Source: Candidatus Binatia bacterium
Lineage (GTDB): Bacteria; Desulfobacterota; Binatia; HRBIN30; CADEER01
Assembly: GCA_050735855.1 (NCBI GenBank)
Contig: JBOHWA010000449.1
Coordinates: forward strand, 1 to 34,074
Length of the DNA: 34,074 bases
Direction of reading: 5' to 3'
In this document: positions 8,278 through 29,230 of the stretch, one piece after another
Numbering within the stretch: position 1 is the first letter of the stretch
Layout of the letters: each line of letters starts with the position of its first letter
Translations under genes and position numbers: made by a program
The notes under the pieces: model-generated
Databases searched by the model: none
What the model was told of the DNA's origin: nothing
What the model saw: only the letters and a program-made list of their open reading frames with translations

Positions 8278-8386
8278 GCGCGTCGGTACCTTGGGCGCGG
8301 AGTAACCGGTCGATACCGACGAGTCAAGGTGACGTGGGGCCCCTCCCTTTACTGCCGCAGCCCCCTCCCCTATCCTCCGGCTCCCG

Positions 8387-9516: not shown

Positions 9517-9555
9517 CCCCACCCGACCGCGCCGTTCGCCCAGGTTCCGACATCC

Positions 9556-10455
9556 ATGAATGATCCCACGTCGTCCCGCGCCCTGCTCGCCGCCGGCGAC
9601 GCCCTGCTGTTCATCGACCGCAAGGAGCGCGAGTACATGCGCATCCTGCGCGCCGGCGCGCGCATGCACATCCGCAGTGGCTACCTGCTCGCCGACGACC
9701 TGATCGGCCAGCCGGAAGGGCGCGAGGTGCGCAACAGCGGTGGCGAGACGTTCATCATCCTGCGCCCGACCTATGCGACGCTGATCCCGAACCTGCCGCG
9801 CAAGGCGCAGGTCATCTACCCCAAGGACATCGGCCCGATCCTGCTGTGGGGCGACATCGGGCCGGGGATGCGCGTCTTCGAGGTCGGCACCGGCCCCGGC
9901 GCGCTCACTATCGCCATGCTGCGCGCCGTCGGCCCGACCGGCGAGGTGATCTCCTACGAGGTGCGTCCGGAGTTCATCGACATGGCGCGCGGCAACGTGG
10001 CGCAGTTCTTCGGCGCGGCGCCCAACTGGACGATCAAGCTGCGCGACATCGCCGACGGCATCGAGGAGCGCGATCTCGACCGCATGGTGCTCGATCTGGC
10101 CGAGCCGTGGGCGGTGCTGCCGGCGGCCGCCGCGGCGCTGCGTCCGGGTGGCGTGCTGGTCGCCTACGTCCCGACCGTCATGCAGGTGAAGCAGTTCGTC
10201 GACCAGGCACGCCTGTCGGGCTTCGGTGCCGTGCAATCGATGGAGACCCTGATGCGGACCTGGCACATCCAGGGCCTCAGCATTCGTCCCGACCATCGCA
10301 TGATCGCGCACACCGGCTTCATCACCGTCTGCCGCCGCATTCTCGCCGCGCCGCCGCTGGCCACGGCGGACGGGCTTGACGATGCCGACGGGGCGCTCGA
10401 GCCCGACGAGGGAACCGACGCCGACGACGCCGCCGGCGAACCGGTCGCAGATTGA
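9556..10455 (+). CDS. trmI: tRNA (adenine58-N1)-methyltransferase TrmI (GCD14 family)
   Basis: 299-aa ORF with QVIYPKDIGPILLWGDIGPGMRVFEVGTGPGALTIAML (SAM-binding GxGxG), then GEVISYEVRPEF and DRMVLDLAEPW, which is typical of TrmI/Gcd14. Confidence 0.85.
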   Translation: MNDPTSSRALLAAGDALLFIDRKEREYMRILRAGARMHIRSGYLLADDLIGQPEGREVRNSGGETFIILRPTYATLIPNLPRKAQVIYPKDIGPILLWGDIGPGMRVFEVGTGPGALTIAMLRAVGPTGEVISYEVRPEFIDMARGNVAQFFGAAPNWTIKLRDIADGIEERDLDRMVLDLAEPWAVLPAAAAALRPGGVLVAYVPTVMQVKQFVDQARLSGFGAVQSMETLMRTWHIQGLSIRPDHRMIAHTGFITVCRRILAAPPLATADGLDDADGALEPDEGTDADDAAGEPVAD

Positions 10456-12951: not shown

Positions 12952-15372
12952 TCAGGGGGGCAGAACGCGAATGACGATGTTGGCCGGTGGTCCCGGCTGA
13001 CCGATGTTATCGAGCACCCGGGCCGTCAGCGTCGTATCGCCGAGCGGGAAGGCGAACTCCGCGCCGACCCCGGGGTTGGTGCAGAACTGGATGCGTGACG
13101 CCGGCGAGACGAAGCCGTCGACCTGGAAGTGATCGCGGGTACAGGCGACGGTCGACGCGCTGCGCACATCGAAACGGCAGCTCAGGTCATTGATCGCGTT
13201 GCTCACCGCTTGTGAGCCGCCGAAGACCGGCGGTGCGACGGCCGGCACGCCACCCACCACCTGGCTGGCGCCGGCGTCGCACACCACGGCGCTGCCGTTG
13301 CCAAGCGGCCGCGAGGTGACGATCTGGAAGTCCGGCAGGACGGCCGGATTGGTCGAATCGCTGTTGAACGTCTTCGTGCCAAGCGGCCGGCCGCTGATGC
13401 CGGGCTTGGCCTCGAAATAGATCAGAAAGCCGCTCGCCGGGCGCAGGAAGGTCGGATAGCCGAAATCGTTCGGGCCGATCGACGCGACCGGCAGCCCGTC
13501 GGCGCGGGCGACGCCGAACGCCGTGACCTCACCGCCGATGGTGCGGAAGGTGGGCGTCACCGTCGACGTCAGCACCGGCGTCCGGGTTGGCGTGGGCGTT
13601 CGCGACGGCGTCCAGGTGAGCGTCCGGGTCGCCGTCGCCGTACCGGTACGCGTCGGCGTCCCCGTGCGGGTCCCGGTCGCGGTGCCGGTCGCCGTCACCG
13701 TGCGGGTGGCGGTCGTCGTGCCGATCAGCGTCGGCGAGCGGCTCGGCGTGCGGGTAACCGACGCGGTGCTGGTCGCGGTGATGGTCGCCGTGGCGCTGGG
13801 GCTGCGGGTCGGGGTCGCGATCGCGGTGGCCGAGGCGGTCGCGGTTGCGGTGCGCGACGCGGTCGCCGTGGGCGTCGCGGTCACCGTCGCGCTGACCGTG
13901 CTGGTGCTGGAAGGCGAGTTGATCGCCGTGCGCGTGCGGGTCGCGGAGGCGGTGCTCGTCGCCACCGGCGTCGGCGAAATGAGCGGGGTCTTGCTGGCGG
14001 TCGCGGTGCGGGCCAGCGTCGGCGTCCGGGTCGGGCTGGCCGTGCGCGTCGACGTGCGCGTCCAGGTCGACGTCGGCATGGGTGTTACGGTCGCCGCGGG
14101 CGGGCCGGTGCGGGTCGGCGAGCTCGTTCGCGTCATGGTCGCGCTGCGCGTCGGGCTCGCCGTCCGAGTCGCCGTCGCCTGCACCGAGCCGGACGGCTGC
14201 GCCGTCGCCGTCGCGGTTCGCGTGCGGGTCGTGCTGCGCGTCGGGCTGGGCGTCGGGCTCGGACTGATGGTGCGGGTTGGGCTGGGCGGCACGACGCCAC
14301 CGGTGGCAGTGCGCGACGGCGTCGCGGTGCGGGTCGCGGTCGCGGTCCGACTCCCAGTCGCGCTGCGGGTGGCGCTGGCGGTGCGCGTGGCGGTCGGGGT
14401 GGCCGTGCCCTCCGGGGTCTCAACGGTCTGCACCTCCGTGGGCGTCAGCGTGCGGGTCGGGCGCGCCGTCGTCACCGGGGTCGGGGTGCGCGTCGGCGTC
14501 TCGGTGCGCGTTCCGGTGCGTGTCCGCGTCGAGGTGGGCCCCGCCGTGCCGGCTTCGGTCGGCGATGACAGCGGGGTCGCCGTCCTCGTCGCGGTCGCCG
14601 TCACTACGCCGGTCGCCGTCCTGGTTGCGGTCGCGGTCCTGCTGCCGGTCGCCGTCCTGGTCCCGGTCCTGGTCACAGTCGCTACCCGGGTCCCGGTCAC
14701 CGTCACCGTCACAGTCACAGTCGCGGTCGCGGCTTCAGACGGGGTGCGGACGGCTGACCCCGTCGGCACGGCCGTCGCGCTCGGCGTCGCTGACGCGGTG
14801 GCCGCCCCGGTGGGCGTTTCCACCGCAGTCGGCGTGGCGGTAACCGTGCCGGTCGGGGTCGCGTTGTCTGCCGGCGTCACGCTCGGCGTCGGCGACGGGC
14901 CCGTCGTCGCCGTCTCGTCCGGGGACGGGCTGACGCCCGCCGATGCCGTCGCCGTCGCGGTCGCCGTCGGAGCAAACGTTGCCGAGTGGCTCGCCGTCGC
15001 CGTCGGCGTCACCGCCGGCGTCACACTCGCCGTCGCGGTTGACGCCGCCGCGGTGGCACTGACGGTCGGAGTCGGTGCACCCGGGGCGCTGGCAGCGGCA
15101 CTGACATCCGCGGCGCTGACGGAGCCGTCGCCATTCGCATCACCGCACGCCTCGACGGCGCCAAAGAGGGCCCCCACCACCCGTTCGACCCGCACCACCC
15201 GTCCCAGCGCTTCGCACGCCCCTTGGGCCTGCACCGGCCCGGCGCGCCCCGCTACGACGCCCCAGGCGGCCGCAGCGACGATCCACGCCACCACACGGGC
15301 CGCACCAGACCCGACGCTCGGGGGCGTCAGGCCGCGTCGGGCCTGTGGATCGTTCGTACCTCGTGTAGACAC
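12952..15372 (-). CDS. Secreted giant protein TP1: signal peptide, dockerin-like Ca-loop, about 510-aa (T-x)n linker, about 200-aa C-terminal Cys domain
   Basis: The frame is open 12952-15600, but the upstream part overlaps the CheY gene. The first start after the CheY stop is GTG 15372 (VSTRGTNDPQARRGL...VVAWIVAAAAWGVVAGRAGPVQAQG). It contains CGDANGDGSVSAADV, a very long T/A/P/R/S/G low-complexity region, and a globular C-terminus paralogous to 21523-22132. Start is uncertain. Confidence 0.75.
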   Translation of the reverse strand: MSTRGTNDPQARRGLTPPSVGSGAARVVAWIVAAAAWGVVAGRAGPVQAQGACEALGRVVRVERVVGALFGAVEACGDANGDGSVSAADVSAAASAPGAPTPTVSATAAASTATASVTPAVTPTATASHSATFAPTATATATASAGVSPSPDETATTGPSPTPSVTPADNATPTGTVTATPTAVETPTGAATASATPSATAVPTGSAVRTPSEAATATVTVTVTVTGTRVATVTRTGTRTATGSRTATATRTATGVVTATATRTATPLSSPTEAGTAGPTSTRTRTGTRTETPTRTPTPVTTARPTRTLTPTEVQTVETPEGTATPTATRTASATRSATGSRTATATRTATPSRTATGGVVPPSPTRTISPSPTPSPTRSTTRTRTATATAQPSGSVQATATRTASPTRSATMTRTSSPTRTGPPAATVTPMPTSTWTRTSTRTASPTRTPTLARTATASKTPLISPTPVATSTASATRTRTAINSPSSTSTVSATVTATPTATASRTATATASATAIATPTRSPSATATITATSTASVTRTPSRSPTLIGTTTATRTVTATGTATGTRTGTPTRTGTATATRTLTWTPSRTPTPTRTPVLTSTVTPTFRTIGGEVTAFGVARADGLPVASIGPNDFGYPTFLRPASGFLIYFEAKPGISGRPLGTKTFNSDSTNPAVLPDFQIVTSRPLGNGSAVVCDAGASQVVGGVPAVAPPVFGGSQAVSNAINDLSCRFDVRSASTVACTRDHFQVDGFVSPASRIQFCTNPGVGAEFAFPLGDTTLTARVLDNIGQPGPPANIVIRVLPP
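13549..15090 (-). repeat. Low-complexity coding repeat encoding the alternating-threonine (T-x)n linker of TP1
   Basis: The translation is dominated by strings such as TRTGTRTATGSRTATATRTATGVVTATATRTATP and TGTATGTRTGTPTRTGTATATRT. It generates spurious V/R/G-rich ORFs on the opposite strand. Confidence 0.8.
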
Positions 15373-15407
15373 CTGCGCACCGGATGAGCAGGCTAAACCT
15401 TCGCTAA

Positions 15408-15791
15408 CTAGCCGCGGTTCAGCAAACGCTCCATCTTCGTGCGCACCACACTGAGGTCGACGATCGGCTTGGCCAGGTAGTCGTCGCACCCGGCCGCCAG
15501 TGCCTTCTGTTCGTCCCCCGCCATCGCCTGGGCCGTCAGAGCGATGATCGGGATGGTCTTGCCGAACTCGAGCTGGCGTATCTTCTTGGTCGCTTCCCAC
15601 CCGTCCATCACCGGCATCTTCAAGTCCATGAAGATCAGGTCAGGCGGCGGCGGCGTCTGAACGATCACCAACGCCTCTTCCCCGTTGCTCGCCTCGACGA
15701 TCTCGAACTCGCCGATCCGCTTCAGGCGGTAAACCAGGATGCGGCGATTGTCCAGGTTGTCTTCGACGACCAGAATACGCTTCGCTGCCAT
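15408..15791 (-). CDS. Single-domain CheY-like response regulator (receiver only)
   Basis: 127 aa: MAAKRILVVEDNLDNRRIL (acidic pocket DD-equivalent), DLIFMDLKMPVMDG (phospho-acceptor Asp), IIALTAQA and DDYLAKP (conserved Lys). There is no output domain. Confidence 0.9.
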   Translation of the reverse strand: MAAKRILVVEDNLDNRRILVYRLKRIGEFEIVEASNGEEALVIVQTPPPPDLIFMDLKMPVMDGWEATKKIRQLEFGKTIPIIALTAQAMAGDEQKALAAGCDDYLAKPIVDLSVVRTKMERLLNRG

Positions 15792-15852
15792 CCCTACCCT
15801 CGCGTCAACTCCCCTCGGCCGGAGTTACTCTCGTTTACCCGACCGACAGTCG

Positions 15853-15885
15853 AAAAAAAAGGCCGGAGTGGATGCCACTCCGGCC
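15853..15885 (-). terminator. Rho-independent terminator downstream of paralog A
   Basis: Perfect 11-bp stem GGCCGGAGTGG (15861-15871) / CCACTCCGGCC (15875-15885) with a 3-nt loop. On the minus strand it is followed by eight T (plus-strand A8 at 15853-15860). It lies about 30 nt after the stop at 15916. Confidence 0.85.
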
Positions 15886-15915
15886 TTCTGTCAGCTCAAC
15901 AGTTGTACTGCCCGG

Positions 15916-17217
15916 TCACGGCGGGGGCGGGACCGGATCGGGGAACACCGTGCGATACACGGCGTCGCCGCCTTCATGTGTCCCGCGTTGATCGAGGTTG
16001 AACGCCGTGGTGGCCAGAACCGGCCCACCGAGGACTTCGCGGTAGTTCTCGCACGCCACACCCAGCAGACCATAACCGAGCGGCCCGCCGGAACCCTGCA
16101 CGCCACGGATCCTTGTCTGACCCGCAATCGTGCCCTGGATGCCAACGGAGAAGATCGAAAACTCGTCGCCCGTCGGACCGCGCGCCGTATCGATGTCGGA
16201 CAACGTCGTGGCGCGGTAGCACTCGATACGCGCGGAGGTCGAGAAACGCTGCTCGAACTCGTTGTAGACCAGCATCTGGGCCAGCACTTCGAAGTTCGCC
16301 TGCACGTCCGGATCGCCGAGGGCCTCGCTGCACGGCACCAGCGTGAGGTCCGTGTTGACGACGCCGCCGATGTCCGTCTGCGCCCCTTCGAAGAAGTGGT
16401 TGAGCTTCAGCTCCGCCGGGCACGGTGCATAGGTGGCGGCGCAGTCGACATCGCTACCTGTCGGCGCCGCACCGAGGCACAGCGGATCGGCTGCTGCACC
16501 CGTTCCGACCTCGATCGTCTCGAAGCCGATGGCATTGTACGACGCCGCCGTCGTGGTGCCAGGATCCGAACCACCCGGCACCGTGGTCGACACGATCGTC
16601 GCCTCAACCTTGAGGTCGCTGCGCTCGACCGGGATATCGTTCTCGTCTACCTGAACGCACTTCAGCTCGCCACGGAACGGATCCTCGACGACGGCATCAA
16701 TGCCGCCATCCGCTATACCGCCAATGCACACCGGCGGCTCGTCAGGAGGGACCTCGCACGGGACGCCTGTCAAACCAGTCGACGCCAGGAAACCCAGCGG
16801 CTGTCCGGCAGTCAGTGTGACCGTGAAGTCGTTTACGCTCCAACCCGGGACACAGTTCAGCCCCGGTACACCTGCCGCGACACAGTCCGCATTGGTCTCG
16901 CAGATGATCCCGGTATCGGCACAGTGGCTGTTCGCGTTTACCCACCAGCAGTCGACCGTGATGAGATCGAGTTCGTTGGTGTTCGACAGCTGGATCAGCG
17001 TGTCGTACTGCTGCCCACCCGGCAGGACCGCTGGGGTTCCCCCCGTGGTGTGCACCATGATCTTCGGCAGCACGACATAACCGCCCGTCAAATCCGACGC
17101 GGCGCCGAGCGTAGACTGTGCCCGCACCCCACCAGCCGAGCAGATCAGCACAAGTGCCGCAACCAAGCCGATACCGAGCAAGCGGCTGGTGCTTCCCTTG
17201 GCATTCACCGTAAGCAT
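15916..17217 (-). CDS. Secreted cysteine-containing protein, paralog A of an unassigned family
   Basis: ATG 17217 is preceded by AAGGAG. Signal peptide LLGIGLVAALVLICSAGGVRA-QS. It shares seven ordered motifs with B, C and D (for example VVLPKIMV, TLIQLSN, DFTVTLTAGQPLGF, FRGELKCVQVD, SYNAIGF, LTLVPC, LVYNEFEQRFSTS). The track ORF start at 17307 would overlap paralog B. Confidence 0.85.
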   Translation of the reverse strand: MLTVNAKGSTSRLLGIGLVAALVLICSAGGVRAQSTLGAASDLTGGYVVLPKIMVHTTGGTPAVLPGGQQYDTLIQLSNTNELDLITVDCWWVNANSHCADTGIICETNADCVAAGVPGLNCVPGWSVNDFTVTLTAGQPLGFLASTGLTGVPCEVPPDEPPVCIGGIADGGIDAVVEDPFRGELKCVQVDENDIPVERSDLKVEATIVSTTVPGGSDPGTTTAASYNAIGFETIEVGTGAAADPLCLGAAPTGSDVDCAATYAPCPAELKLNHFFEGAQTDIGGVVNTDLTLVPCSEALGDPDVQANFEVLAQMLVYNEFEQRFSTSARIECYRATTLSDIDTARGPTGDEFSIFSVGIQGTIAGQTRIRGVQGSGGPLGYGLLGVACENYREVLGGPVLATTAFNLDQRGTHEGGDAVYRTVFPDPVPPPP

Positions 17218-17270
17218 CTCGTCACTCCTTTCCGTGCCTGAGCGAGCGCGCATGGCGTCCTCCTGACCCC

Positions 17271-18383
17271 TTACGGCAACCGAATTTCGGAGTTGAAGGA
17301 AGGACAACCTGGAGGATCCGCATCATCCGTGCAGAAATGGAGGTTGGTCGCCGCCGTGTCCGACGAGCCGTCTCCAGCCGTGCGCAGCACATTCGCGACA
17401 CCCAGGACGGGGGCCAGACCCGGTCCGATCGGCGTCACGATCGCCTTGCCGAACGTGGTCTGCAGACCCGCCTCGGTCATCACGAACGGCGGGCCGAGAT
17501 CGCCGATGAGCGATTCGAACCAACAATCCACGAGGACCGGGGAAATCGATCTGTTGACCTCAAACTCGTTGCGGATCGCGAAGGTCACAGCCGTTTCCTC
17601 GGGCTCGAGATTCTCGAAGTCGATGGCGCACGGGATGAACGTCAGGCTGGTGCTGACCACCGAAGGGCTGTTGCCCGCCAGCGCGATCGCCGGATCTTCT
17701 GCGCCATCGCCGATGAAGTTCACATAAAGGCCGCCGGGGCAGGCCGCGTACTCGACCCCATTGAGCGACAGGACGTTGTCCAGGTTGTTGGTGCCGCTGG
17801 TCGGCCCGCACAGACCTGGATTGCCCATCGCCATCCCGTTGCCGTTGCAGGACGGGATGCCGATCGCGTTGTACTTGCTGACGTTGTTGGTCCCACCCAG
17901 GGTGGTGATATCCCCGATGGTGGCCTGTCCGGTCAGGCTGTTGCTGCCCATCGGCGTTCCGTCGAGGGCCGTTTCAACGCAGACCAGGAAGCCGGTGAAG
18001 CCCGGCGGAACCGGAGGAACCAGACCCGGGTCAAACCCGCGATCTCCGTCCTGCGGATTGACCGCACGACCGTCGCTCGCCGACCAGGTGGTCGGCTGCT
18101 GACGGGTCAGCGAGATTTCGAAGTCGGTGACCTGCCAGGCAGGCTGGCCGTTCACCGGTCGACCGTCGGTGTAGAAGCAGTGCGCATGCACCACGTTGTT
18201 CGACACGTTCGAAATCTGAATGATGGTGTTCGGATTGGTATTCACCACCTTCGGGAAGATCAGGATCGATCCCGGTCGTTCCGTACTGAAGTTCCCTTGC
18301 GCGCTGACCGTTCCGGCCGCAAGCGTCATCCCGAGCAGGACGCCTGCGATCACACCGGCTCGCAGCCCCTTCACCGTACTCAT
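17271..18383 (-). CDS. Secreted cysteine-containing protein, paralog B of the same family (shortest, lacks Cys-rich inserts)
   Basis: ATG 18383 is preceded by AAGGAGGAG. Signal peptide GVIAGVLLGMTLAAGTVSA-QG. Motifs: ILIFPKVVN, TIIQISN, DFEISLTRQQPTTW, FTGFLVCVETA, KYNAIGI, LTFIPC, AIRNEFEVNRS. It ends ...NSEIRLP. Confidence 0.85.
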   Translation of the reverse strand: MSTVKGLRAGVIAGVLLGMTLAAGTVSAQGNFSTERPGSILIFPKVVNTNPNTIIQISNVSNNVVHAHCFYTDGRPVNGQPAWQVTDFEISLTRQQPTTWSASDGRAVNPQDGDRGFDPGLVPPVPPGFTGFLVCVETALDGTPMGSNSLTGQATIGDITTLGGTNNVSKYNAIGIPSCNGNGMAMGNPGLCGPTSGTNNLDNVLSLNGVEYAACPGGLYVNFIGDGAEDPAIALAGNSPSVVSTSLTFIPCAIDFENLEPEETAVTFAIRNEFEVNRSISPVLVDCWFESLIGDLGPPFVMTEAGLQTTFGKAIVTPIGPGLAPVLGVANVLRTAGDGSSDTAATNLHFCTDDADPPGCPSFNSEIRLP

Positions 18384-18451
18384 GGGTTCTCCTCCTTCAT
18401 AAGGACACGCGCTCCAGAGTCCGACTCAAGTCCCCTCACCCACGCGTCGGA

Positions 18452-19606
18452 CTAGGGAATCCGGATGAAGTCCGGGTGGTCGCGATCGGCGAACTGATTC
18501 AGATTGTAGGCTGCACCCGAATCGACCAGACCGGTCGCGTCGCATCCGGTCACGTCGCAGAACGAGAGGCTGGCTGCCCCGATGAGGCCGCCGTTGACGC
18601 CGGTGATACGGGTCTGACCCGCCACCGTGCCGGAGACACCCGCGTTGAAGATCGACCGTGCAGGCTGCGTGGTATCGATGCGTGAGATCGGGCGGTCGAG
18701 CAGGCAGTCGACCGGCTGACTGGTCGAGAAGCGCTGTTCGAACTCGTTGTAGACCAGGAACTGCGCTGTCACACGGGGGACCTGCTGCTGGAGGAAGTCC
18801 TCGGTGCAGGGCACCAGGCTGAGCTCCGACTGCGCCCGATAGATCCCCGAGATCGGGTCGACCGCGTTGTCAAACAGGTGGTTGAAAACCAGAACTTGGG
18901 CGCAGGGCTGATACTCGGGCTCGTCCTCGCCACCGATGACCAACTCCGCGTCGCCATTGTTGAATCCGTTGCTGCGCAGGCCCACGGCGTTGTACTTGCG
19001 CGTATCGATGATGCCGAGCTCAACCTTGGTGATCGTCGCGGCGCCTTCGAGGTCGTCGCGGCAGCCATTGCCAGTGCATTCGAACGGCAGGCGCGTGATC
19101 GGATCGACCTGGATGCACTTGAGCTCGCCGACGAACGGCGTCTCGCCAACGGGCGGGATGCCGGTGCCTGCGTTGGTGCCAATCCCCTGGGTGCAGCGAT
19201 TGCCGAACCCGCCCTTGCACGGCAGGTCGCTCTGCCCCAGGCCCGCCTCGGCGCTCCAGCCGAGCGGCTGGTTGGAGGTCAGGATGATGTCGAAGTTGAT
19301 CTCGATCCAGCCCGCCTGACAGGAGCCGAAGAAACCGGTGTCGTCCTGGCAATCGAGCGAGTTCTCGCAAACTTCGCCTGTGTTGGTGCAGCGATTGTTC
19401 GCGTTGACATAGAAGCAGTGTGCCGCCGTCGGCTGCGGCGCCTGGTTGGTGAGCTGCAACACAGTGTCGCGCCCATCGTCGACGACGATCTTCGGCCATA
19501 CCACGATCGCCGCACCGGTATCCGAGTAGGTGAATGCGTGTGCCATCGGCGCCATCAGCAGGCTGACCGCGGCCCCCAGCAAACTCAAAGTCTTATTCGT
19601 CAGCAT
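18452..19606 (-). CDS. Secreted cysteine-containing protein, paralog C of the same family
   Basis: ATG 19606 is preceded by GGAGAGAAGGAGAAGG. The track start at 19645 is a GTG abutting the stop of D (TGA at 19642-19644). Signal peptide LSLLGAAVSLLMAPMAHA-FT. Motifs: IVVWPKIVV, TVLQLTN, NFDIILTSNQPLGW, FVGELKCIQVD, KYNAVGL, LSLVPC, LVYNEFEQRFSTS. It ends ...PDFIRIP. Confidence 0.85.
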   Translation of the reverse strand: MLTNKTLSLLGAAVSLLMAPMAHAFTYSDTGAAIVVWPKIVVDDGRDTVLQLTNQAPQPTAAHCFYVNANNRCTNTGEVCENSLDCQDDTGFFGSCQAGWIEINFDIILTSNQPLGWSAEAGLGQSDLPCKGGFGNRCTQGIGTNAGTGIPPVGETPFVGELKCIQVDPITRLPFECTGNGCRDDLEGAATITKVELGIIDTRKYNAVGLRSNGFNNGDAELVIGGEDEPEYQPCAQVLVFNHLFDNAVDPISGIYRAQSELSLVPCTEDFLQQQVPRVTAQFLVYNEFEQRFSTSQPVDCLLDRPISRIDTTQPARSIFNAGVSGTVAGQTRITGVNGGLIGAASLSFCDVTGCDATGLVDSGAAYNLNQFADRDHPDFIRIP

Positions 19607-19641
19607 CGCCCTTCTCCTTCTCTCCATCCGCGCGGGCCGGG

Positions 19642-21147
19642 TCACTGCTCAATAACGGTGACAGGGTCCGGTGTGAACCGGATCTCGTCGTTCATGCACC
19701 GGTCGCAGAAGTCGCCTACGCCCAGGCAGCCGCCATCATCCGTGCACGCGGTCCCGGCGACGCGGCAGAGCCCCGTCGGGCATGCGCCGGCGACGCAACC
19801 GCTGCCGGTGCAGCTCGTATCACTGGAGCAGGTCGTCGTGGTGATCGCACCGCGGCAACTACCGAGACGGCCGTTGTCGCCGTCGCCGTTGACATCGACC
19901 GAGTAGCCGTTGGCGGCGTTGGTGCCCGCTTGAGCGGAAGACATGACGGCCAGCGTGACGTCGCTCTCGTGGAACTCTTCGACGATCGACAGGATGCCAC
20001 TCGGCGGCGCGCAGACACCATTGTCGCCGCACTGAGCATCCGTCGAGCAGGGCGTGTTGACCTCGTCGTCGTCGCCCGCGATGCAGAGGCCGGTGCCGGC
20101 CGGGTTGATGCGGGTGCGCTGGAACGTGCTGCCGCCGAGATTGGAGAAGCCGAGATTCTCGAGCGTGAAGGTCACCCCGCAGGTAAAGGGCCGCTCGACC
20201 GACAGGCGCGACTCGAACTCATTGTGGTAGACGATGTCGACTTGGAAGCGGGTCGGGATCTCGTTTTCGAAATCGTAGCGGCAGGGGATGACCGTAATCT
20301 CGGTCGTCACCGGGCAGCCCGACGTCGCGCAGGCGGCGGGACTGATCGCACCGGCGACCAGATCGTTCGCCCCCGGCGAGTAGTTGGTGAACTCGACGCT
20401 CTCGGGGCAGGCGTTGTAGCCTGTCGCCGTGCTGTTCAGCTCGATGTACTCGGCCGGATCGGGATCGACGGTACCGAGGACGTTGATCGAGTTGTACTCG
20501 CTGATCTGCGTCGAGCCGAGCGTCTCGATGATCGCTTCGCCCTTCAGGCCGTTGGACGGCATCGGAGTGCCGTCCGCTGCGACCTGGATGCAGCGCAGGT
20601 TGCCGTAGAACGGCTGCACCGGCGGCACCACCTGGCCAACCAGGAAGAAGCCCGGGCATTCCTGCCGCGGCGGCACACCGGGGATCAGATCGCAGGAGCC
20701 ATCGGCCGGAAGGGCCGGATTGTAGATACGACCGGTCGACACACGCCAGATCGTGGGCTGTTGGCGGGTGAGGATCACATCGAAGTCCAACGTCGCGCAC
20801 GGCTCATCGGGGTTGAGCCCCAAGACGCACACATCAGAGGGACCACCCGGACAGGCCGGCGCGCTGAACACCGCCGACTCGCTCGGCAGCGTGCAGTGCT
20901 GCTGGCTGAGCGAGCAGATGCCGATCGAGTTGGTGTACTCGCAATGCGCGTACGCGGTCTCGTTGCGGGTATTGGTCAGCGTGATGAGGGTGTCGCGCGT
21001 CCCATCCGCCACTACCTTCGGCCAGATCACCACGGAACCAGGTCGATCCGACGTCGTATCCGCCGCCGCCTGCGTTGCCCCCAGCGCCATGGCCGCCAGC
21101 ATCACTCCCAGGCTATAAAGCCACGGGTTTCGCTTCTGCACTCGCAT
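19642..21147 (-). CDS. Secreted cysteine-rich protein, paralog D of the same family, with an extra C-terminal Cys-rich extension
   Basis: ATG 21147 is preceded by AAGGAGG. Signal peptide LYSLGVMLAAMALGATQAAA-DT. Motifs: VVIWPKVVA, TLITLTN, DFDVILTRQQPTIW, FYGNLRCIQVA, EYNSINV, ITVIPC, IVYHNEFESRLS. The last 147 aa, from CIAG (20085), include the inserts CIAGDDDEVNTPCSTDAQCGDNGVC and DVNGDGDNG...CSSDTSCTGSGCVAGACPTGLCRVAGTACTDDGGC. Confidence 0.85.
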   Translation of the reverse strand: MRVQKRNPWLYSLGVMLAAMALGATQAAADTTSDRPGSVVIWPKVVADGTRDTLITLTNTRNETAYAHCEYTNSIGICSLSQQHCTLPSESAVFSAPACPGGPSDVCVLGLNPDEPCATLDFDVILTRQQPTIWRVSTGRIYNPALPADGSCDLIPGVPPRQECPGFFLVGQVVPPVQPFYGNLRCIQVAADGTPMPSNGLKGEAIIETLGSTQISEYNSINVLGTVDPDPAEYIELNSTATGYNACPESVEFTNYSPGANDLVAGAISPAACATSGCPVTTEITVIPCRYDFENEIPTRFQVDIVYHNEFESRLSVERPFTCGVTFTLENLGFSNLGGSTFQRTRINPAGTGLCIAGDDDEVNTPCSTDAQCGDNGVCAPPSGILSIVEEFHESDVTLAVMSSAQAGTNAANGYSVDVNGDGDNGRLGSCRGAITTTTCSSDTSCTGSGCVAGACPTGLCRVAGTACTDDGGCLGVGDFCDRCMNDEIRFTPDPVTVIEQ

Positions 21148-21220
21148 TGCACGCCTCCTTTCGAGTAACTGCACCCTTTGCGCACGGGGGCTATCGCGTG
21201 TCCCCTTGAACGCGGAAAGC

Positions 21221-21249
21221 CTTATTGCAATTTGATGCCGCACTGTCAA
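21221..21249 (-). promoter_or_regulatory. Candidate sigma70-type promoter for the D-C-B-A operon
   Basis: The minus strand reads CTTGACA-GTGCGGCATCAAATTGC-AATAAG. This is a perfect -35 TTGACA (plus 21244-21249), a 17-nt spacer, a TGC extended element and a 4/6 -10 AATAAG (plus 21221-21226). It lies about 70 nt upstream of ATG 21147 in an AT-richer intergenic region. Pattern match only. Confidence 0.3.
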
Positions 21250-21522
21250 GCGGAAAAGCGAGAGATGCAGCGGCGCGCGTTATTGCTGCGGGCTCGGGTC
21301 GCTTCTGCCACTTGATCATCGGTTCCGTCCTCCCTCGGACACGCCCCTTCGCGGTGCTCGGACGTCACACGCACGGTATATGCCACAAAGGAACGGGCCT
21401 GGGAACTGAATTTTGCTCAACCCCAAAGGTGTGTGCCGTGTTGCAAAAACGGCAGACCGTCAAGCCGGCGTGGCGCGGCCCGACTCCATTTGATGTCCCT
21501 GGCACTATTCCTGAGGGAGCCC

Positions 21523-24105
21523 TCAGGGTTGGACGCGGACGACGATTTCCTTCTTCGGGCCGAGATTGCCGGCCGTATCGCGCAGTTGGATGGCGATCAC
21601 CGTGTCCTCGTCGCCGAACTGGCCGGTGGTTGGCACCTGGTAGCAGTACTGCATGCGGGTTGAGGCGGGCACGACATAGCTGAAGTTGCCGAAGCTATTG
21701 CGCGTGCAGGCGAGATCGCTGGTGGTCTGCAGCGTGAAGCGGCAGGCCATGTCCTGAATCGCGTTGGTCGTCGCGCTGCCGCCGCTGAAGTCGATCGGGC
21801 TTGCCGGCACGCCGCCGAACGGCGTCGGTGGCGGCCCCATGTCGCACTTCGCCGGGCTGCCGTTGCCCGTCGCCTTGCTGACGACCACCTGGAGGTCGCC
21901 GCGATCCTGGCATTGAGGGAAGAGACAGGTGCCGGGATTGAGGTTCGAGGTGCCGCGACGGCCTTCGACGACGAACAGGAAGGTCCCGGTCGAACGGATG
22001 AACACCTCGCGGCCGAACTCGTCGATCAACGGCGTTGGCGTCGGCGTCAGCTGACAGAGGAACTCGCAACAGAAGGGGCAGCCGTCCTGCGAGATCACGC
22101 CGGCGTAGTTGACCCGTGCACCGATCTCGTTCGACGTCGGCGTCGGCGTGCGCGTGATCGTCGGGGTCAAGGTGATCGTCCCGGTAAAGGTCGGCGTGCG
22201 CGTCCGGGTCGGCGTGCGCGTGATGGTCGGGGTGCGGGTGGGCAGCGGTGTGAAGCTGCTGGTGGCGGTGAGCGCCGGCGCCGTCGTGCGCGTCGCCGTG
22301 CGCGTCGGCGTCGCGGTCACGGTGCGGCTCGGGGTGAACGAGAGGACCGGGGTCAGGGTGAAGCTTGCCGTCTGAGTGACCGAGGCCGTGCGCGTCGGCG
22401 TCGCGGTGCGCGTCTCCGTACTGGTACGCGTCGCACTCAGCGTCGGCAGCGGCGTCCCGGTACCCGTCGCCGTGCGGGTCGGCGTGGCCGTGCGCGTCTC
22501 GGTGGCCGTGCGCGTTCCCGTCTCGGTGAAGGTGGCGGATCCGGTCGGCGCGGCGCTGCGCGTCGGCGATGGACTGCGCGTATCGGTCGGTGCCAGGGTG
22601 GGGCTGGCCGTGTGCGACGGCGTGCCGGTGAACGTGATGGTACGCGTTGGGCTCTCGGTGACGGTCAAGGGCGGCGTGGCGGTCAAGGGCGGCGTGGCGG
22701 TGGCGGTGCCGGTGCGCGTCGCCGAAGCGGTCGGCGACTCCGTACTGGTGCGCGAGGACGTCTGCGTGAAGCTGGGCGTCGTCGTGCGCGTCGGCGTCAG
22801 CGTGAAGCTGGCCGTCACGGTCGACGTGGGCGGCACCGGGGTCCGCGTGGGCGTCTCGGTGCGCGACGGGGTCAGCGTGCGCGTGACGGTTTCGCTCGGC
22901 GCGACCGTCTGGGTCGGCGGAGCGGTCGCGGTGCGCGTCGGCGTCAAGGTGAACGGGGGTGTCAGGGTAGACGTCGGCGTCCGCGTGCTGCTGCTGGTCG
23001 CGGTCGAGGCGGCGGTCGGCGCACCACTCGGGGTCATCGACGGCGTCGCGCTGCGCGTCACCGTGCGGGTGAATGTCCCGGTGCGCGTGGTGGTCGGCGG
23101 TGCACCGGGCGTGTGGGTCCGCGTCGGGCTCCCCGTCCGCGTGGCGGTCGCGGGCGGCTGATCGGTGGGTACCGGCGTCGCCGTGCGCGTCGCCGTGCCG
23201 GTGCGCGTCGCGGTGCCGGTGAGGGTTGCGGTGCCGGTGCGCGTTGCGGTGCCGGTGCGCGTCGGCGTCAGCGTCGGCAGCAAGGTGCCGGTGCGCGTCG
23301 GCGTCACCTCCTCCGCGGTCCTGGTTGCCGTCGCCGTACCCGTGCGCGTCGCGGTGCTCGTACGCGTCGCAGTGCCCGTCTGCGTCGCGGTGCGGGTGCG
23401 CGTCGCGGTTCCAGTCAGCGGTGGCACGGACGGCGTCGGCGTCGCGCTCGGGTCAGTCGGCGTCGGCGTCGGACTGTTGTCCGGGGTCGGCGTCGCCGTC
23501 CCGGTCTCGGTCGCGAGAGGCGAGGGCGAGATGCTGTGGGTCACCGTCGGTGTCGATCCATCGCTCGTCGGAGTCACCGTGCCGGTCGCCGTCGCCGTGG
23601 GCTCGACTGTCGCCGTGGGCTCGACCGTCGCCGTGGGCTCGACCGTCGCCGTGGGCTCGATCGTCGGGGTTGGTGTCTCGGGAGAGACAGTCGGCGTCGG
23701 ACTCGACACCGCGGTCAGGGTGGCGGTCGGCGTCGCGGGGCTCGTGGAAGAGGGCGAGACACTGGCGGTCGCCGTCGCAGTAGCAGTCGGCGTGGCGGAC
23801 GAGGTGCTGGTCGAAGAGGGCGTGCCGACGGGCGTCGGGGTTGGGTCAGCCACCAGCGCACGCGCCAGGGCGACCAGATCCGCGGCGCTGAGGCGCTGGT
23901 CCTCATTGACGTCAGCGCTGGCGCAGCCGCTCCCCGCAAACAGGGCGCCCTCGAGGGCCGGGACATCGAGCCCGTTCGTCGCCCCGTCGCAGTTGGTATC
24001 GCCCGCCAGACCCTGGGCAGGGGCGCTGCCAGCGGCCAGCAGCACCATCAATCCAGCGAAAACGACAGATGCTCGGCCCCGCAGTCGGTGCACACGCCCC
24101 CTCAT
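21523..24105 (-). CDS. Secreted giant protein TP2: signal peptide, two-segment dockerin-like module, about 570-aa (T-x)n/PT linker, about 200-aa C-terminal Cys domain
   Basis: ATG 24105 gives MRGRVHRLRGRASVVFAGLMVLLAAGSAPAQG (alternatives 24129 and 24156). Two dockerin-like Ca loops: DTNCDGATNGLDVPALEGALF and DVNEDQRLSAADLVALARALV. A long T/P/A/R/S/G low-complexity region follows. The C-terminal domain is paralogous to TP1 (TNAIQDMACRF vs SNAINDLSCRF; ACTRNSF vs ACTRDHF; IVVRVQP vs IVIRVLPP). Confidence 0.8.
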   Translation of the reverse strand: MRGRVHRLRGRASVVFAGLMVLLAAGSAPAQGLAGDTNCDGATNGLDVPALEGALFAGSGCASADVNEDQRLSAADLVALARALVADPTPTPVGTPSSTSTSSATPTATATATASVSPSSTSPATPTATLTAVSSPTPTVSPETPTPTIEPTATVEPTATVEPTATVEPTATATGTVTPTSDGSTPTVTHSISPSPLATETGTATPTPDNSPTPTPTDPSATPTPSVPPLTGTATRTRTATQTGTATRTSTATRTGTATATRTAEEVTPTRTGTLLPTLTPTRTGTATRTGTATLTGTATRTGTATRTATPVPTDQPPATATRTGSPTRTHTPGAPPTTTRTGTFTRTVTRSATPSMTPSGAPTAASTATSSSTRTPTSTLTPPFTLTPTRTATAPPTQTVAPSETVTRTLTPSRTETPTRTPVPPTSTVTASFTLTPTRTTTPSFTQTSSRTSTESPTASATRTGTATATPPLTATPPLTVTESPTRTITFTGTPSHTASPTLAPTDTRSPSPTRSAAPTGSATFTETGTRTATETRTATPTRTATGTGTPLPTLSATRTSTETRTATPTRTASVTQTASFTLTPVLSFTPSRTVTATPTRTATRTTAPALTATSSFTPLPTRTPTITRTPTRTRTPTFTGTITLTPTITRTPTPTSNEIGARVNYAGVISQDGCPFCCEFLCQLTPTPTPLIDEFGREVFIRSTGTFLFVVEGRRGTSNLNPGTCLFPQCQDRGDLQVVVSKATGNGSPAKCDMGPPPTPFGGVPASPIDFSGGSATTNAIQDMACRFTLQTTSDLACTRNSFGNFSYVVPASTRMQYCYQVPTTGQFGDEDTVIAIQLRDTAGNLGPKKEIVVRVQP
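22133..23840 (-). repeat. Low-complexity coding repeat encoding the (T-x)n / PT linker of TP2
   Basis: The translation contains TGTATRTRTATQTGTATRTSTATRTGTATATRT, TGTATRTGTATLTGTATRTGTATRTATP and many xPTxT units. It generates spurious R/G-rich and V/G-rich ORFs in other frames. Confidence 0.8.
23591..23662 (-). repeat. Four tandem copies of an 18-bp unit (encodes EPTATV x4) inside TP2
   Basis: Plus strand: GTCGCCGTGGGCTCGACT / GTCGCCGTGGGCTCGACC / GTCGCCGTGGGCTCGACC / GTCGCCGTGGGCTCGATC at 23591, 23609, 23627 and 23645. Units differ only at the last two positions. Confidence 0.9.
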
Positions 24106-24364
24106 CGCGACCTCGGGTCGCCCATGCATCAGTAACCGCCCGACCGCTTCAACCACGACTCTGTAAGATGGATCAAAGTCCAGATATGCGACAACACTCG
24201 CTTGTTTGCAATCAACAATGAAGGTCGCATGTCGCCGTAATCAGGCGAAGTGACTGACCTTTTGCTGCAGAGTGGACCTTGCCGATGCCGGCCGGAGCGG
24301 GCAAAACGCGCTTGCAGCAAACCGACGACGGGCTACCCTGACGGGGCCACGAGGAGGCAGACCG

Positions 24365-24559: not shown

Positions 24560-24611
24560 GCGCGGACGCTATTGAATACGAAGGCGATTTAGCCTACTCG
24601 TGATCCACTCA

Positions 24612-25523
24612 ATGGATCACGACGCGGCCTTCGCGTTGGTGACGCTCGCTGAACTGCCACGCGTCGGCGAGCGCGTGCTCCAACGCGTCCAGCAGCGCGC
24701 CCGCCGCGCGGGCCTCGCGATCACACGCGTCCTCGCCCTGCCCCGCCCGGTCCTGCTCGACGAATACGGTCTGCCAGCCGCGGCGGTGCACCGGTTGTGC
24801 GACGCCCGGGTCTGGCACCGCGCCCATTGCGACGCCATCCTCGCCTATCTGCGCGCGGTCGGGGCGGGGCTCGCCACCCCGGACGACAGCACCTACCCGG
24901 CCGCCTGGACGATGCGGGCCAACGCGCCGCCGCCGCTGACCTATCTGTACGGCGACCCGTCGCTGGCGGCGCGCCCCACCCTGGCGCTGCTCAACTCGCG
25001 GGTGGTCAGCGAACAGACGGTCACCGCGACCGTGCGCATCGCGCGCCGCGCGGCCGGTGAAGCCTTCGCGCTGGCGGTCGGCGGCATGAAAACCACCCAC
25101 CGCATCGCCGCGGCGACCGCGCGGGCCGCCGGGGCCGGCCGGATCATCGTCCTCGACCGCGGCCTGTTCGTCGCCTTCCACGGCCGTCTCGAGTTCGATC
25201 CGTTCGGCTTCGGACCGGGGCGCACGCGCTTCGATCCGCGCACCACCCTGGTGCTCTCCCCCTTCCGCCCGCACGACCATGCTGTGGCGCGCAACGGTCG
25301 CCGGCGCGACGAGCTGATTGCCGCCCTGGGCGACATCGTCGTCGCCGTCAGCGCCCGCCGCGGCGGCGAGGTCGAACGCATCTGCCTGCGCGCCATCGAC
25401 CATGGCCAGTGCGTGCTCGTCTGGCAGGGCGCCAACGCCGGCCTGCTGGCGGCCGGCGCCCGGCCGCTCGACGACGACGATTTACGCGCTGGGCTGCGCC
25501 GCTACCTGCCGAAGCAGCGCTGA
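24612..25523 (+). CDS. Divergent DprA/Smf-like (SLOG-fold) protein
   Basis: N-terminal helical region (AAFALVTLAELPRVGERVLQRV), YPAAW...PPPLTYLYGDPSL, then a Rossmann-like core: LALLNSRVVS..., AVGGMKTTHRIAAATARAAGAGRIIVLDRGL, LVLSPF...ARNGRRRDELIAALGDIVVAVSARRGGEVERICLRAIDHGQCVLVWQG. The order of elements matches DprA, but conservation is weak. GTG 24600 is an alternative start. Confidence 0.5.
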   Translation: MDHDAAFALVTLAELPRVGERVLQRVQQRARRAGLAITRVLALPRPVLLDEYGLPAAAVHRLCDARVWHRAHCDAILAYLRAVGAGLATPDDSTYPAAWTMRANAPPPLTYLYGDPSLAARPTLALLNSRVVSEQTVTATVRIARRAAGEAFALAVGGMKTTHRIAAATARAAGAGRIIVLDRGLFVAFHGRLEFDPFGFGPGRTRFDPRTTLVLSPFRPHDHAVARNGRRRDELIAALGDIVVAVSARRGGEVERICLRAIDHGQCVLVWQGANAGLLAAGARPLDDDDLRAGLRRYLPKQR

Positions 25524-26813: not shown

Positions 26814-29105
26814 CTACGACTCGGGCGGATGCAGCGCCATCGCCGGCACCCACTCCGCGTCGCGCCCCGGCGGCTCCCACTGGAACCAGAGGAAGTAGGG
26901 CCCCTGCGGCCCCGGGCGCATGTCTATGCGCAGCGCCCGGCGGCCGGCGCGCAAGGCCACGCGACCATCGTGCCCGCCACCGAACGCCGCCGCGCCGGCA
27001 TGCGCGATCACCGGCTGGCCGTCGATGGTCAGCGAGGTCGAGTCGGGGTGCAGGCGAAACAGATACTCGCCGTCCTCCGGCACGTCGATGAACCCATCCC
27101 ACACCGCGGCGCCGAAGCGCCCGATCGGTTCGGCCTCCAGCCCGGACTCTTCAAATGCGAACGGCAGCACCGCCTCGTGATAGGGCGTGCCGCTGGCGTC
27201 GGGCTCCTTGTAGAAGCGACCGCGCAATCCGAACGGCCAGGGCCGCACGCCGGCGGCCAGTTGGTCGCGCACCGCCACGGCGGCGGCGCGCGGCACGCGG
27301 CAGGCGACGAGATCGACGCGACCGAAGGGATCGCGCACCTCGTCGCACGCCACCGCCGGGGAGAGGGCGCGCAACCCGTCGGCGAGCGACGCGTACGGCC
27401 GCGGCAACAGGTAGAGCAGATCGCGCGACAGCGGTCCCTGCGGCGGGAAGTCGTGCGCCAGGCGCAACATGCGGACGTCGGTCGGCCGGTCGTCGAGATG
27501 GCGCCGCCCGACGAACTGCGTGGTCGGATTCCAGTACGTGCTCGCATCGAGAAAGACGGTCTCCGTCGGCCGATGCGCGGCCAGATAGCGCGCCGGCGCC
27601 GACTCGTACGGAAAGAAGGCATCGTAGTAGCTCGGCAACCGCGGCCGCGCGACGAAATAGGCGCGATACTCCTGCCGTGCCGCGACCAGCGCGGCGGCGC
27701 CGAGCCCGACGGCCAGCACCGCGCGCGCCGGCCGCGCCGGCAGCGTCGCCAGGACGATGCCGGCGATACCGTCGACCGCGATGCCGATCATCAACGCCAG
27801 CGGCACGATCGTGTCGAGCAGGCGCGAGGCATGCGGCGCTTCGAGCGTGATCATCCCGGGCACCAGGGCCACCGCGAACCAGGCCGGCACCAGCGCGTAG
27901 GCCGGCCGCCGCCAGCGGCACAGACAGATCACCAGCCCGAGCGGCGCCAGCATCGACGGCATGAAGGTCAGCAGCGGCGCGAAGGGGAGGTTGTGGCGCG
28001 CGTTGTCGTCGCCGACGAACTGAAACGCCAGCAGCGACCGCGGCACCGATTCGGCGAGCTGCGCCGCCCAATCGTCGCGCACCAGGATCAACGTGCCCTG
28101 GGCACGCTCGCCGAACTGCTCGGGCTGGGTGGCCGCATAGTGCAGCATCGGCGTAGCCACCAATACCGCCAGCACCGCCGCCGCGGCGAGCTGCGGCCAT
28201 CGGGCGCGCAGCAGCGCGCGCCGCGATCGCCATGCCCAGAGCAGGCCGCCCACCCCGGCGAGGACGATGAACAGGCGGAAGGTCTGGTAGGTGTAGACGC
28301 CGGCGCCGGCCAGCAGCCCCGCCGCCGACCACGCCGCCCAGGCCCGCCACCCGCGCCAGCGCAGACCGAGCCACACCGCCAGGCAGAGCAGCGTCTCGAT
28401 CAATGGCGACATGATCGGCATCTCGCCCCAGCGCGAGTAGTTCAGATGATAGTGCGAGACCGCCAGCCAGGCGCTCGCCGCCAGGGCCGCGCGCGCGCCG
28501 AACAGCGCCCAGGCGAGCCCGCCGGCGGCGACCACGCCGAGCAGACCGATGACCGCCGCCAGCGCGCGCAGCGCGTAGGGGCCGTCGTCCGGATCGAAGA
28601 GCGCGAACACCAGCCCGGCGACGTCGACAAAACCGGCGCCGAGTCCGGTGCGCACGTCCTCCGGCGGCAGCGCCACCAGCGGCCACCCGCGCGCGGCAAT
28701 CTCGACTGCCTGCACGCCGTTCAATCCCTCGTCGATCCACAGGCCGGGCGGCAACTCCGCCAACCGATGGAAGCGCAGTCCGGCACCCACCAGGAACAGC
28801 GCCAGCAGCGCGGCAGCCGCGGCGCGCGCCGCGCGGCCCGGCGCCAGGGCCCAGCGGCGTGTCCAGGCACAGAGCAGCGCCATCAGCAGCCCCGCCGCGC
28901 CGTACCAGGCCAGCCCCGCCCCGCGATGGGCGAGGAAGTCCTCGTACTGTCCACCCAGCGCCGCGTGGCCGCGCCCGAACTGCCACTGGCCCAGCGCCGC
29001 ACAGCCCAGCGCCGCGATCAGCAGCGCCAGCCCGACCCGCCGCGCGCGGGCGTCGAGGCGATCGCCGGGGGACGGTGGCGGCGGGGCAGCGGGCGAGCGA
29101 GACAT
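26814..29105 (-). CDS. GT-C fold glycosyltransferase (family 39 / PMT_2-like) fused to a C-terminal PA14-like domain
   Basis: Multi-TM N-terminal part with the first-loop motif RFHRLAELPPGLWIDEGLNG typical of PMT/ArnT-like GT-C enzymes. The C-terminal roughly 150 aa (GLRGRFYKEP...FGAAVWDGFIDVPEDGEYLFRLHPDSTSLTIDGQPVI...ALRAGRRALRIDM...FLWFQWEPPG) follows the PA14 pattern. ATG 29105 is preferred; 29147 is possible. Confidence 0.75.
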   Translation of the reverse strand: MSRSPAAPPPPSPGDRLDARARRVGLALLIAALGCAALGQWQFGRGHAALGGQYEDFLAHRGAGLAWYGAAGLLMALLCAWTRRWALAPGRAARAAAAALLALFLVGAGLRFHRLAELPPGLWIDEGLNGVQAVEIAARGWPLVALPPEDVRTGLGAGFVDVAGLVFALFDPDDGPYALRALAAVIGLLGVVAAGGLAWALFGARAALAASAWLAVSHYHLNYSRWGEMPIMSPLIETLLCLAVWLGLRWRGWRAWAAWSAAGLLAGAGVYTYQTFRLFIVLAGVGGLLWAWRSRRALLRARWPQLAAAAVLAVLVATPMLHYAATQPEQFGERAQGTLILVRDDWAAQLAESVPRSLLAFQFVGDDNARHNLPFAPLLTFMPSMLAPLGLVICLCRWRRPAYALVPAWFAVALVPGMITLEAPHASRLLDTIVPLALMIGIAVDGIAGIVLATLPARPARAVLAVGLGAAALVAARQEYRAYFVARPRLPSYYDAFFPYESAPARYLAAHRPTETVFLDASTYWNPTTQFVGRRHLDDRPTDVRMLRLAHDFPPQGPLSRDLLYLLPRPYASLADGLRALSPAVACDEVRDPFGRVDLVACRVPRAAAVAVRDQLAAGVRPWPFGLRGRFYKEPDASGTPYHEAVLPFAFEESGLEAEPIGRFGAAVWDGFIDVPEDGEYLFRLHPDSTSLTIDGQPVIAHAGAAAFGGGHDGRVALRAGRRALRIDMRPGPQGPYFLWFQWEPPGRDAEWVPAMALHPPES

Positions 29106-29230
29106 CCGATCCGCGCCGCTCTTAGCCGACTGCGCCGCCAGCGACAATGCGCCGCGGCCGCGGCGGCCTGTCGCGCAATTGCCTTCATCCGGGCCAGCGA
29201 GTAAGGGCGGAGGCGGTCCGTGTGACGCGA

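Follow-up and report, generated by a model that had tools for sequence, protein, structure and literature searches.

Alternating pairs of predicted secreted all-β proteins in Binatia, candidate building blocks of an extracellular assembly with dockerin-like partners

We analyzed a 34,074-nucleotide (nt) stretch of DNA from a Candidatus Binatia bacterium (contig JBOHWA010000449.1 of assembly GCA_050735855.1, positions 1 to 34,074; hereafter the window), in which four consecutive minus-strand genes, D, C, B and A, encode related proteins of a family without a name. The four genes form two pairs of deep subtypes, α and β, i.e., D-C and B-A, and are flanked by genes for two proteins, here called Doc1 and Doc2, that combine a dockerin-like module, a long Thr/Pro-rich (TP) linker and a common C-terminal domain (CTD). 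Our favored reading, for which we estimate a probability of roughly 45%, is that α/β heteromers act as building blocks in an extracellular or surface-located assembly that is specific to Binatia and includes these dockerin/TP-linker/CTD proteins. Each α would pair 1:1 with the β encoded just downstream (D with C, B with A), and the heteromers would serve as structural or binding units of an assembly located outside the cell or at its surface. Both flanking proteins, with linkers that are possibly O-glycosylated, would also belong to it; the α/β unit would form the base or receptor end, and dockerin, linker and CTD would be its partners or the displayed end. For the family we infer export, disulfide formation, α-β association, surface location and contact with the dockerin/CTD proteins.

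Open reading frame (ORF) calling reproduced all four genes, which an initial annotation of the window, made from the letters alone, had described as an operon of tandem paralogs encoding secreted, cysteine-containing proteins. The paralogy was borne out: the proteins align end to end with 27–40% identity (relative to A, 30% for B, 40% for C and 27% for D in the full-length alignment), share 41 invariant columns and give pairwise BLAST scores of 68–169 bits, far above chance. Each of the seven collinear motifs that had been listed was recovered in the four-protein alignment. At least four equivalent cysteines had been expected, and there are in fact five that are invariant in all four proteins, i.e., C64, C164, C235, C267 and C301 in the numbering of protein C, which is used throughout.

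The family is large, and its genes are arranged in a strict order. A collection of 5.8 billion proteins held 785 homologs of protein C, all annotated as hypothetical and none with a Pfam domain, and the named hosts were all Binatia or ‘Deltaproteobacteria’ metagenome-assembled genomes (MAGs). An exhaustive hidden Markov model (HMM) search of 1.84 billion representatives gave 1,535 clusters at 50% identity. From a scan of GTDB species genomes we obtained 181 matching stretches and kept 80 loci for array analysis. A single genome must carry at least 10–13 family genes, because single MAGs supply several loci each. When ORFs were called in the 80 loci and searched with the family HMM, family genes always lay in same-strand tandem arrays. 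BLAST against the four window proteins assigned every member to either the α (B/D-like) or the β (A/C-like) subtype; the best relative of D within the window is B. The arrays alternate from α to β, with α-β-α-β in 37 and α-β in 15 of the 80 loci, and the exceptions are mostly arrays cut by contig ends. In longest-ORF calling the α-to-β gap has a median of 5 nt, including 27 four-nucleotide overlaps, and the median β-to-α gap is 45 nt. From these alternating arrays we conclude that the window operon is (α-β)×2, composed of D-C and B-A. According to BLAST, the four diversified copies of the initial view are not equal variants, rather two α/β pairs.

About 30 Binatia species have an orthologous D-C-B-A locus with the same gene order, at identities as low as about 40%, and D orthologs hold the matching position in loci L001, L002, L004 and others. 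Its setting is core-genome (AMP-binding ligase, metallophosphatase, DprA, 5-FTHF cyclo-ligase, TrmI), and in each of the sampled Binatia genomes the core-genome positions of the family loci were conserved. The initial annotation had allowed for an absence of syntenic homologs elsewhere; instead, we found synteny kept across the class, on which ground a horizontally acquired island was dropped as well. The GC content of the four-gene block (window 15000–22000) is 0.63–0.65 versus 0.67–0.77 around it. Because the locus is syntenic across the class, an effect of composition or expression is more likely than recent transfer. Clustering of flanking ORFs brought out two kinds of conserved partner, the dockerin/CTD proteins and a CheY-like receiver, so that the conserved neighborhood spans seven genes. 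The block limits originally drawn, 15916–21147, are therefore correct for the four genes, but the conserved unit is wider and reaches 21523–24156 on the upstream and 12952–15791 on the downstream side.

Two roles had been put forward for the four copies, a multi-subunit extracellular or periplasmic assembly or a set of ligand-binding variants. Our data favor the assembly over interchangeable variants, because each gene has its own same-order ortholog in about 30 species, because α-β pairs alternate with tight α-to-β spacing, and because natural α+β single-chain fusions exist. In a further explanation, the proteins would be periplasmic or extracellular ligand-binding or sensor components relaying to the adjacent CheY-like receiver, the paralogs representing different specificities. 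A stand-alone receiver gene indeed follows D-C-B-A immediately downstream on the same strand in 29 loci, and the family is diversified and present in many copies. However, a strong terminator lies between gene A and the receiver gene, other α-β arrays come without a receiver gene, and no conserved histidine kinase, transmembrane transducer or transporter was found in the neighborhood. Together with the fact that D, C, B and A each have strictly one-to-one orthologs, which speaks against interchangeable specificity variants, this makes a sensor role improbable in our judgment.

Natural fusions, as read from their sequences, place α, β, dockerin and CTD in one molecular context, apparently an extracellular or cell-surface one. 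Chain P0144 consists of α, β, dockerin and the same CTD as in the partner proteins, with no signal peptide between α and β; the window, with its two α/β pairs and two dockerin/CTD partners, matches this 1:1:1 composition. In P0236, P0253 and P0259, β is joined to dockerin and CTD, in P0233 to a TP linker, FG-GAP repeats and a dockerin, and in P0191 and P0213 to myxococcal Cys-rich repeats and dockerin-like EF loops. P0204, P0250, P0184, P0240 and P0247 are lipoproteins with a half-length α, a Pro/Thr (PT) linker and then β, and P0240 and P0247 additionally bear a YncE- or NHL-type β-propeller. P0261 has Kelch repeats followed by β only. Fusion partners of this kind (FG-GAP, Kelch/NHL propellers, myxococcal Cys-rich repeats, PT linkers) are typically seen in proteins that are secreted or located at the surface. 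Pairing also holds in the divergent fusion clade, where L086 contains an α gene followed by the fused β P0258, and L087 an α-β-α-β array with its last β fused (P0233). The half-α of the lipoproteins covers HMM positions ~38–228 and precedes a full β, which suggests that the N-terminal half of α may be an independently folding sub-domain. In P0128 and P0201, β and a PT linker are followed, as judged by eye, by Gly/Cys, a transmembrane helix and an Arg-rich tail; MYXO-CTERM sorting was rejected for both, since no NCBIfam match was found at E ≤ 0.1.

The dockerin/CTD partners are a regular part of the D-C-B-A neighborhood. Every D-C-B-A locus is directly preceded, on the same strand, by a gene for a Doc1-type homolog of ~850 amino acids (aa), and a second dockerin/CTD copy is often found downstream, after the receiver gene. 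In Doc1 of the window, a signal peptide is followed by a dockerin-like module, ~600 aa of Thr/Pro/Ala/Arg-rich linker and a β CTD of ~200 aa that contains Cys; across loci, the Thr/Pro/Ala/Arg linkers of the partner proteins measure 400–600 aa. The score of window Doc1 against Pfam Dockerin_1 (PF00404) is 22.0 bits at a gathering cut-off of 22.9. The orthologs in L019 and L002 reach 33.3 and 24.9 bits, other orthologs are below the cut-off or unmatched, and the fused family member P0233 scores 36.3 bits. Doc2 combines a signal peptide and a Thr/Pro/Ala linker with a dockerin-like module that is degenerate and with the CTD also found in Doc1; it gives no Dockerin_1 match and shows one DxNxDG Ca-loop by eye. 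For the CTD we found 158 homologs, all hypothetical. Its AlphaFold2 model (predicted local distance difference test, pLDDT, 90.7) had no Foldseek match in the PDB at E ≤ 1e-3, and hhalign found it unrelated to the α/β family.

In public data, gene calls for the Thr/Pro-rich dockerin/CTD proteins are systematically wrong, and the system is therefore invisible to standard pipelines. The deposited calls for L001 give two opposite-strand genes where a single 861-aa same-strand ORF holds dockerin and CTD (L001 5261–7606 vs 5544–8129), and database homologs of the CTD are mostly called as stand-alone proteins of 180–240 aa. Glycosyltransferase genes occur nearby: a PMT_2-family (GT-C) enzyme with PA14 (777 aa, 26814–29147, minus strand) is encoded 2.7 kb upstream of Doc1 and kept only in the 7 closest loci, and in L087 (10732–12912) GT2 and PMT_2 genes directly follow the β-TP-linker-FG-GAP-dockerin gene. 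In actinobacteria, PMT carries out periplasmic O-glycosylation. By analogy, the neighboring PMT_2 genes suggest that the Thr/Pro linkers may be O-glycosylated in the periplasm.

We scored residue conservation over 257 locus-derived members and 125 representative domains. C64, C164, C235 and C267 are universal in both sets and probably form two disulfides, for which C64-C164 and C235-C267 are the expected pairs. C301 (window ~18704–18706, with equivalent positions in A, B and D) is present in 92 of 92 stand-alone representative domains and in none of 19 multidomain fusions, a pattern that fits, but does not prove, an inter-subunit disulfide in the two-gene form. Moreover, a polar set of T48, Q113, Y232, N287 and E288 is near-invariant across α, β and the distant fusions, with E288 found in 100% of the 125 representative domains. 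Thr-Gln ester or Cys-Gln thioester cross-links, an idea raised by the invariance of T48, C64 and Q113, would be conceivable but were not adopted.

This polar set leads to the main rival explanation, which sees in the ~350-aa domain a novel module for catalysis or ligand binding, in its stricter form the catalytic module of a new extracellular enzyme family acting, e.g., on a polysaccharide, glycoprotein or peptide. The pairs would then be two-subunit enzymes with the layout of cellulosomal enzymes. The [domain]-[dockerin]-[linker]-[CTD] order of P0236, P0253 and P0259 does mirror that of enzyme, dockerin and carbohydrate-binding module, and glycosyltransferase and sugar-nucleotide genes adjoin one array (L087). 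Yet similarity to any enzyme family was found neither in sequence (Pfam, NCBIfam, PDB sequences) nor in fold (Foldseek against the PDB). Many members, often those of the fusion clade, have G, R or A in place of E290, the second Glu of NEFE, and the conserved set is retained in α as well as in β, which is not typical of enzyme pairs with one active and one inactive partner. It would also be unusual for a single activity to be encoded by at least 10 genes per genome amid housekeeping genes. We therefore hold either form of this explanation to be unlikely.

The AlphaFold2 model of protein C, computed from the family alignment, has a pLDDT of 86.6, a predicted template-modeling (TM) score of 0.85 and about 23 strands, and agrees with the all-β fold proposed earlier. 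Foldseek searches with this model covered the PDB and BFVD (viral models) and returned no whole-chain relative, with TM-scores ≤ 0.25. None of A, B, C and D matched Pfam-A at E ≤ 1, and 51 alignment members searched at E ≤ 10 gave only weak Toxin_18 matches on a small Cys-rich insert. NCBIfam, PHROGs and PADLOC had zero matches for all four proteins; phage and defense-system proteins were set aside on the PHROGs and PADLOC result. Against PDB chain sequences the family profile found nothing, the best E-value being 0.5. The statement that the family cannot be named was hence upheld by Pfam-A, NCBIfam, PHROGs, PADLOC, PDB sequences and whole-chain Foldseek comparison. Because the defining features of none of the tested families were found in it, we place the family, at the resolution of these tools, outside all kinds known so far, the fold search being that of PDB and BFVD only.

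The sole confident Foldseek match was TM1070 (PDB 1NC7), an uncharacterized β-sandwich protein from Thermotoga maritima, with a probability of 1.00 and a TM-score of 0.72 normalized to the 116-residue target; normalized to the query the score is 0.24, at 8% identity and over less than one-third of protein C. One sub-domain of C would accordingly share the TM1070 sandwich topology, which gives no functional clue because TM1070 itself has no known function. By E-value, the top whole-chain matches were adhesins, pilins and adaptors with two β-sandwich domains, namely CfaE, ClfB and arrestin/Vps26 (3e-4 to 5e-3), a generic likeness of tandem β-sandwiches; with TM-scores of 0.08–0.18 and root-mean-square deviations >20 Å there is no real superposition. 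Unlike pilins and adhesins, the Binatia family has no chaperone-usher, sortase or LPXTG features and no type V lipobox. Chaperone-usher or type V pilins were rejected on the basis that no usher or chaperone gene lies in the window or the 80 loci, that the leaders are, by eye, of signal peptidase I (SPase I) type and that pilin TM-scores are ≤ 0.12. The Lys of WPK (K39) is found in just 66 of the 125 representatives, with Y, R, L or D elsewhere. It is not conserved, and an isopeptide with a first-strand Lys is therefore ruled out; isopeptide pilin or adhesin domains (CnaA/CnaB) were also dismissed for lack of a SpaA or Cna Pfam match on the family domain. The C-termini of the family end in a conserved Pro (IRIP, IRLP). 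An outer-membrane β-barrel was discarded given this C-terminal Pro, the five conserved cysteines and the absence of a barrel match.

In gene logic alone, LukS/LukF and BinA/BinB offer an analogy, being adjacent paralogs in fixed order that encode a secreted all-β 1:1 pair. The Binatia proteins, predicted to be secreted and all-β and 350–450 aa long, could be bi-component toxins or pore-formers. There is, however, no sequence or fold relation: leukocidin, aerolysin and Toxin_10 had no Pfam match, and no leukocidin, aerolysin or ETX/MTX2-like protein was among the Foldseek matches, so that β-pore-forming toxins were rejected as an identity. The Binatia loci are multi-copy and sit at conserved core-genome positions in every genome sampled, the fusion partners of the family are dockerin and structural repeats instead of receptor-binding lectins, and its conserved disulfides are atypical of β-pore-forming toxins. 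We give a toxin function hardly any credence.

With respect to gene logic and partner modules, the closest resemblance by analogy is to the cohesin-dockerin cellulosome scaffolds of Clostridia. Both consist of secreted modular β-sandwich proteins with long Pro/Thr linkers, both have type I dockerin-like Ca-loop modules (in Binatia in the partner proteins, with Dockerin_1 scores on either side of the cut-off), and in both paralogous modules are encoded together and module and dockerin occur in one chain, as in scaffoldins. Non-cellulosomal dockerin-like modules occur in many bacteria and archaea. In contrast to cohesin, the Binatia module is ~350 aa long, has conserved disulfides and comes in α/β pairs; the dockerin of the window partner proteins is N-terminal, and no carbohydrate-active enzyme modules were found. 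The cohesin profile (PF00963) matched neither A–D (no Pfam match at E ≤ 1) nor any of the 51 members at E ≤ 10, and the nine-stranded cohesin jelly-roll was absent from the top 50 Foldseek PDB matches to the C model. The family was not filed as cohesin because profile and fold were both tested and not found.

A more far-reaching version of the assembly reading would make the α/β family a new, non-cohesin receptor and scaffold for dockerin-like modules. Disulfide-linked heterodimers would then form a Binatia-specific surface lattice or fiber, into which glycosylated dockerin/TP-linker/CTD, propeller and FG-GAP proteins are plugged; we regard this version as doubtful. If true, surface assembly in the style of cellulosomes would have evolved a second time independently, and the lattice might be the major envelope layer of an entire uncultured class. 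CWB2 cell-wall proteins and SLH-domain proteins each share one anchoring or assembly module fused to variable domains. The Binatia family resembles CWB2 (C. difficile) and SLH-domain surface families in its many paralogs per genome and in the position of the module at one end of diverse extracellular proteins, but shows no homology to them, and the Binatia host is probably diderm.

Several points weigh against the proposed assembly. The contacts of α with β and of the family with dockerin/CTD proteins are deduced from gene order and fusions, and no cohesin-like sequence (Pfam) or fold (Foldseek PDB) was detected. In the same genomes, a dockerin gene is missing from the vicinity of most other α-β arrays. 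Genes dedicated to secretion or assembly were not found conserved beside the arrays in the 80 loci, and the proteins may therefore stay in the periplasm. The invariant residues T48, Q113, N287, E288 and Y232 look more like a functional pocket or a metal site than like a core of structural importance only, so that a catalytic or ligand-binding role is still conceivable. Finally, the split distribution of C301 could equally be the marker of one clade.

Binatia (Binatota, UBP10) occur worldwide but are uncultured, and knowledge of the lineage comes only from metabolic reconstructions (PMC8262859). With 1,535 clusters, at least 10 genes per genome, a strict α/β grammar and no Pfam, NCBIfam or PDB relative, the family is one of the most prominent blind spots of Binatia. 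A literature search for Binatia and dockerin found no paper, and a metaproteomics preprint does not mention the family. To our knowledge, the partners of dockerin-like modules outside cellulosomes are largely unknown. Given gene order and fusions to dockerins, the system described here may reveal the docking partners of non-cellulosomal dockerins and the makeup of the cell surface in Binatia.

Coordinates of the four family genes and their conserved neighbors are compiled in Table 1.

Table 1. Features of the conserved D-C-B-A neighborhood in the window.
Feature	Position	Strand	Description	Basis
Gene D	19642–21147	minus	501 aa, α-type	ORF and translation, alignment
Gene C	18452–19606	minus	384 aa, β-type	ORF, alignment, AlphaFold2 model
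Gene B	17271–18383	minus	370 aa, α-type	ORF, alignment
Gene A	15916–17217	minus	433 aa, β-type	ORF, alignment
Intrinsic terminator	15853–15885	minus	downstream of gene A	sequence and folding
Doc1	21523–24156	minus	upstream partner; likely start ATG 24105	Dockerin_1 and synteny
Doc2	12952–15372	minus	downstream partner; likely start GTG 15372; longest ORF to 15600 overlaps receiver gene	
Receiver	15408–15791	minus	CheY-like, stand-alone, 127 aa	Pfam Response_reg, E = 5.5e-25

As claimed initially, each family gene is preceded by its own strong Shine-Dalgarno site of the AAGGAG type, 6–9 nt upstream (D AAGGAGG, C GAAGGAG, B GAAGGAGGAG, A AAAGGAG), and the intergenic gaps are short, measuring 35, 68 and 53 nt. 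The terminator closing the block was likewise confirmed: a GC-rich 15 bp stem with a U8 tail folds with a free energy of −31.1 kcal/mol (z = −6.1), and all of 200 shuffled versions fold less well. A consensus promoter/terminator scan missed this terminator, which is real, and yielded fewer sites than shuffled sequences did. For the Sec-type signal peptides with an AxA-like site, the agreement is by eye only: the four SPase I-type leaders have a basic n-region and a hydrophobic core, followed by VRA↓Q, VSA↓Q, AHA↓F and AAA↓D.

The 375-nt region upstream of D (21148–21522) contains a TTGACA box near 21250 and an AT-rich stretch 17 nt downstream of it; no promoter was called there by the consensus scan, and Rfam had zero matches in the whole window, this region included. 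Plus-strand ORFs at 15739–17241, 17337–18455 and 19930–21168 overlap the block and are shadow ORFs of DNA with 65–70% GC; long opposite-strand shadow ORFs are common throughout the window.

The family domains differ in Cys-rich insertions. Protein B is the minimal form and carries none. Protein C has a knottin-like Cys-rich insert at residues 73–96, with an equivalent region in A. Such a small four-cysteine insert of the β type is present in 61–70% of all members, and weak matches to the conotoxin O-superfamily (Toxin_18) were obtained for it in 14 of 51 sequences. The gene D protein, with 28 cysteines in total, has a Cys-rich insertion of ~110 aa near its C-terminus (residues ~385–480, window ~19710–19990), which shows CxxDxxC-type spacing and precedes the last strands; its ortholog in L004 gives a faint DUF7107 match.

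The rest of the window is housekeeping (2262–4727, 5466–6719, 6763–10311, 24600–25523 and 29147–30835), with BamA (5 POTRA + Omp85), a MacB/LolCE-type FtsX permease, a class II tRNA synthetase (D, K, N type), a DprA-like protein and an AMP-binding ligase as products.

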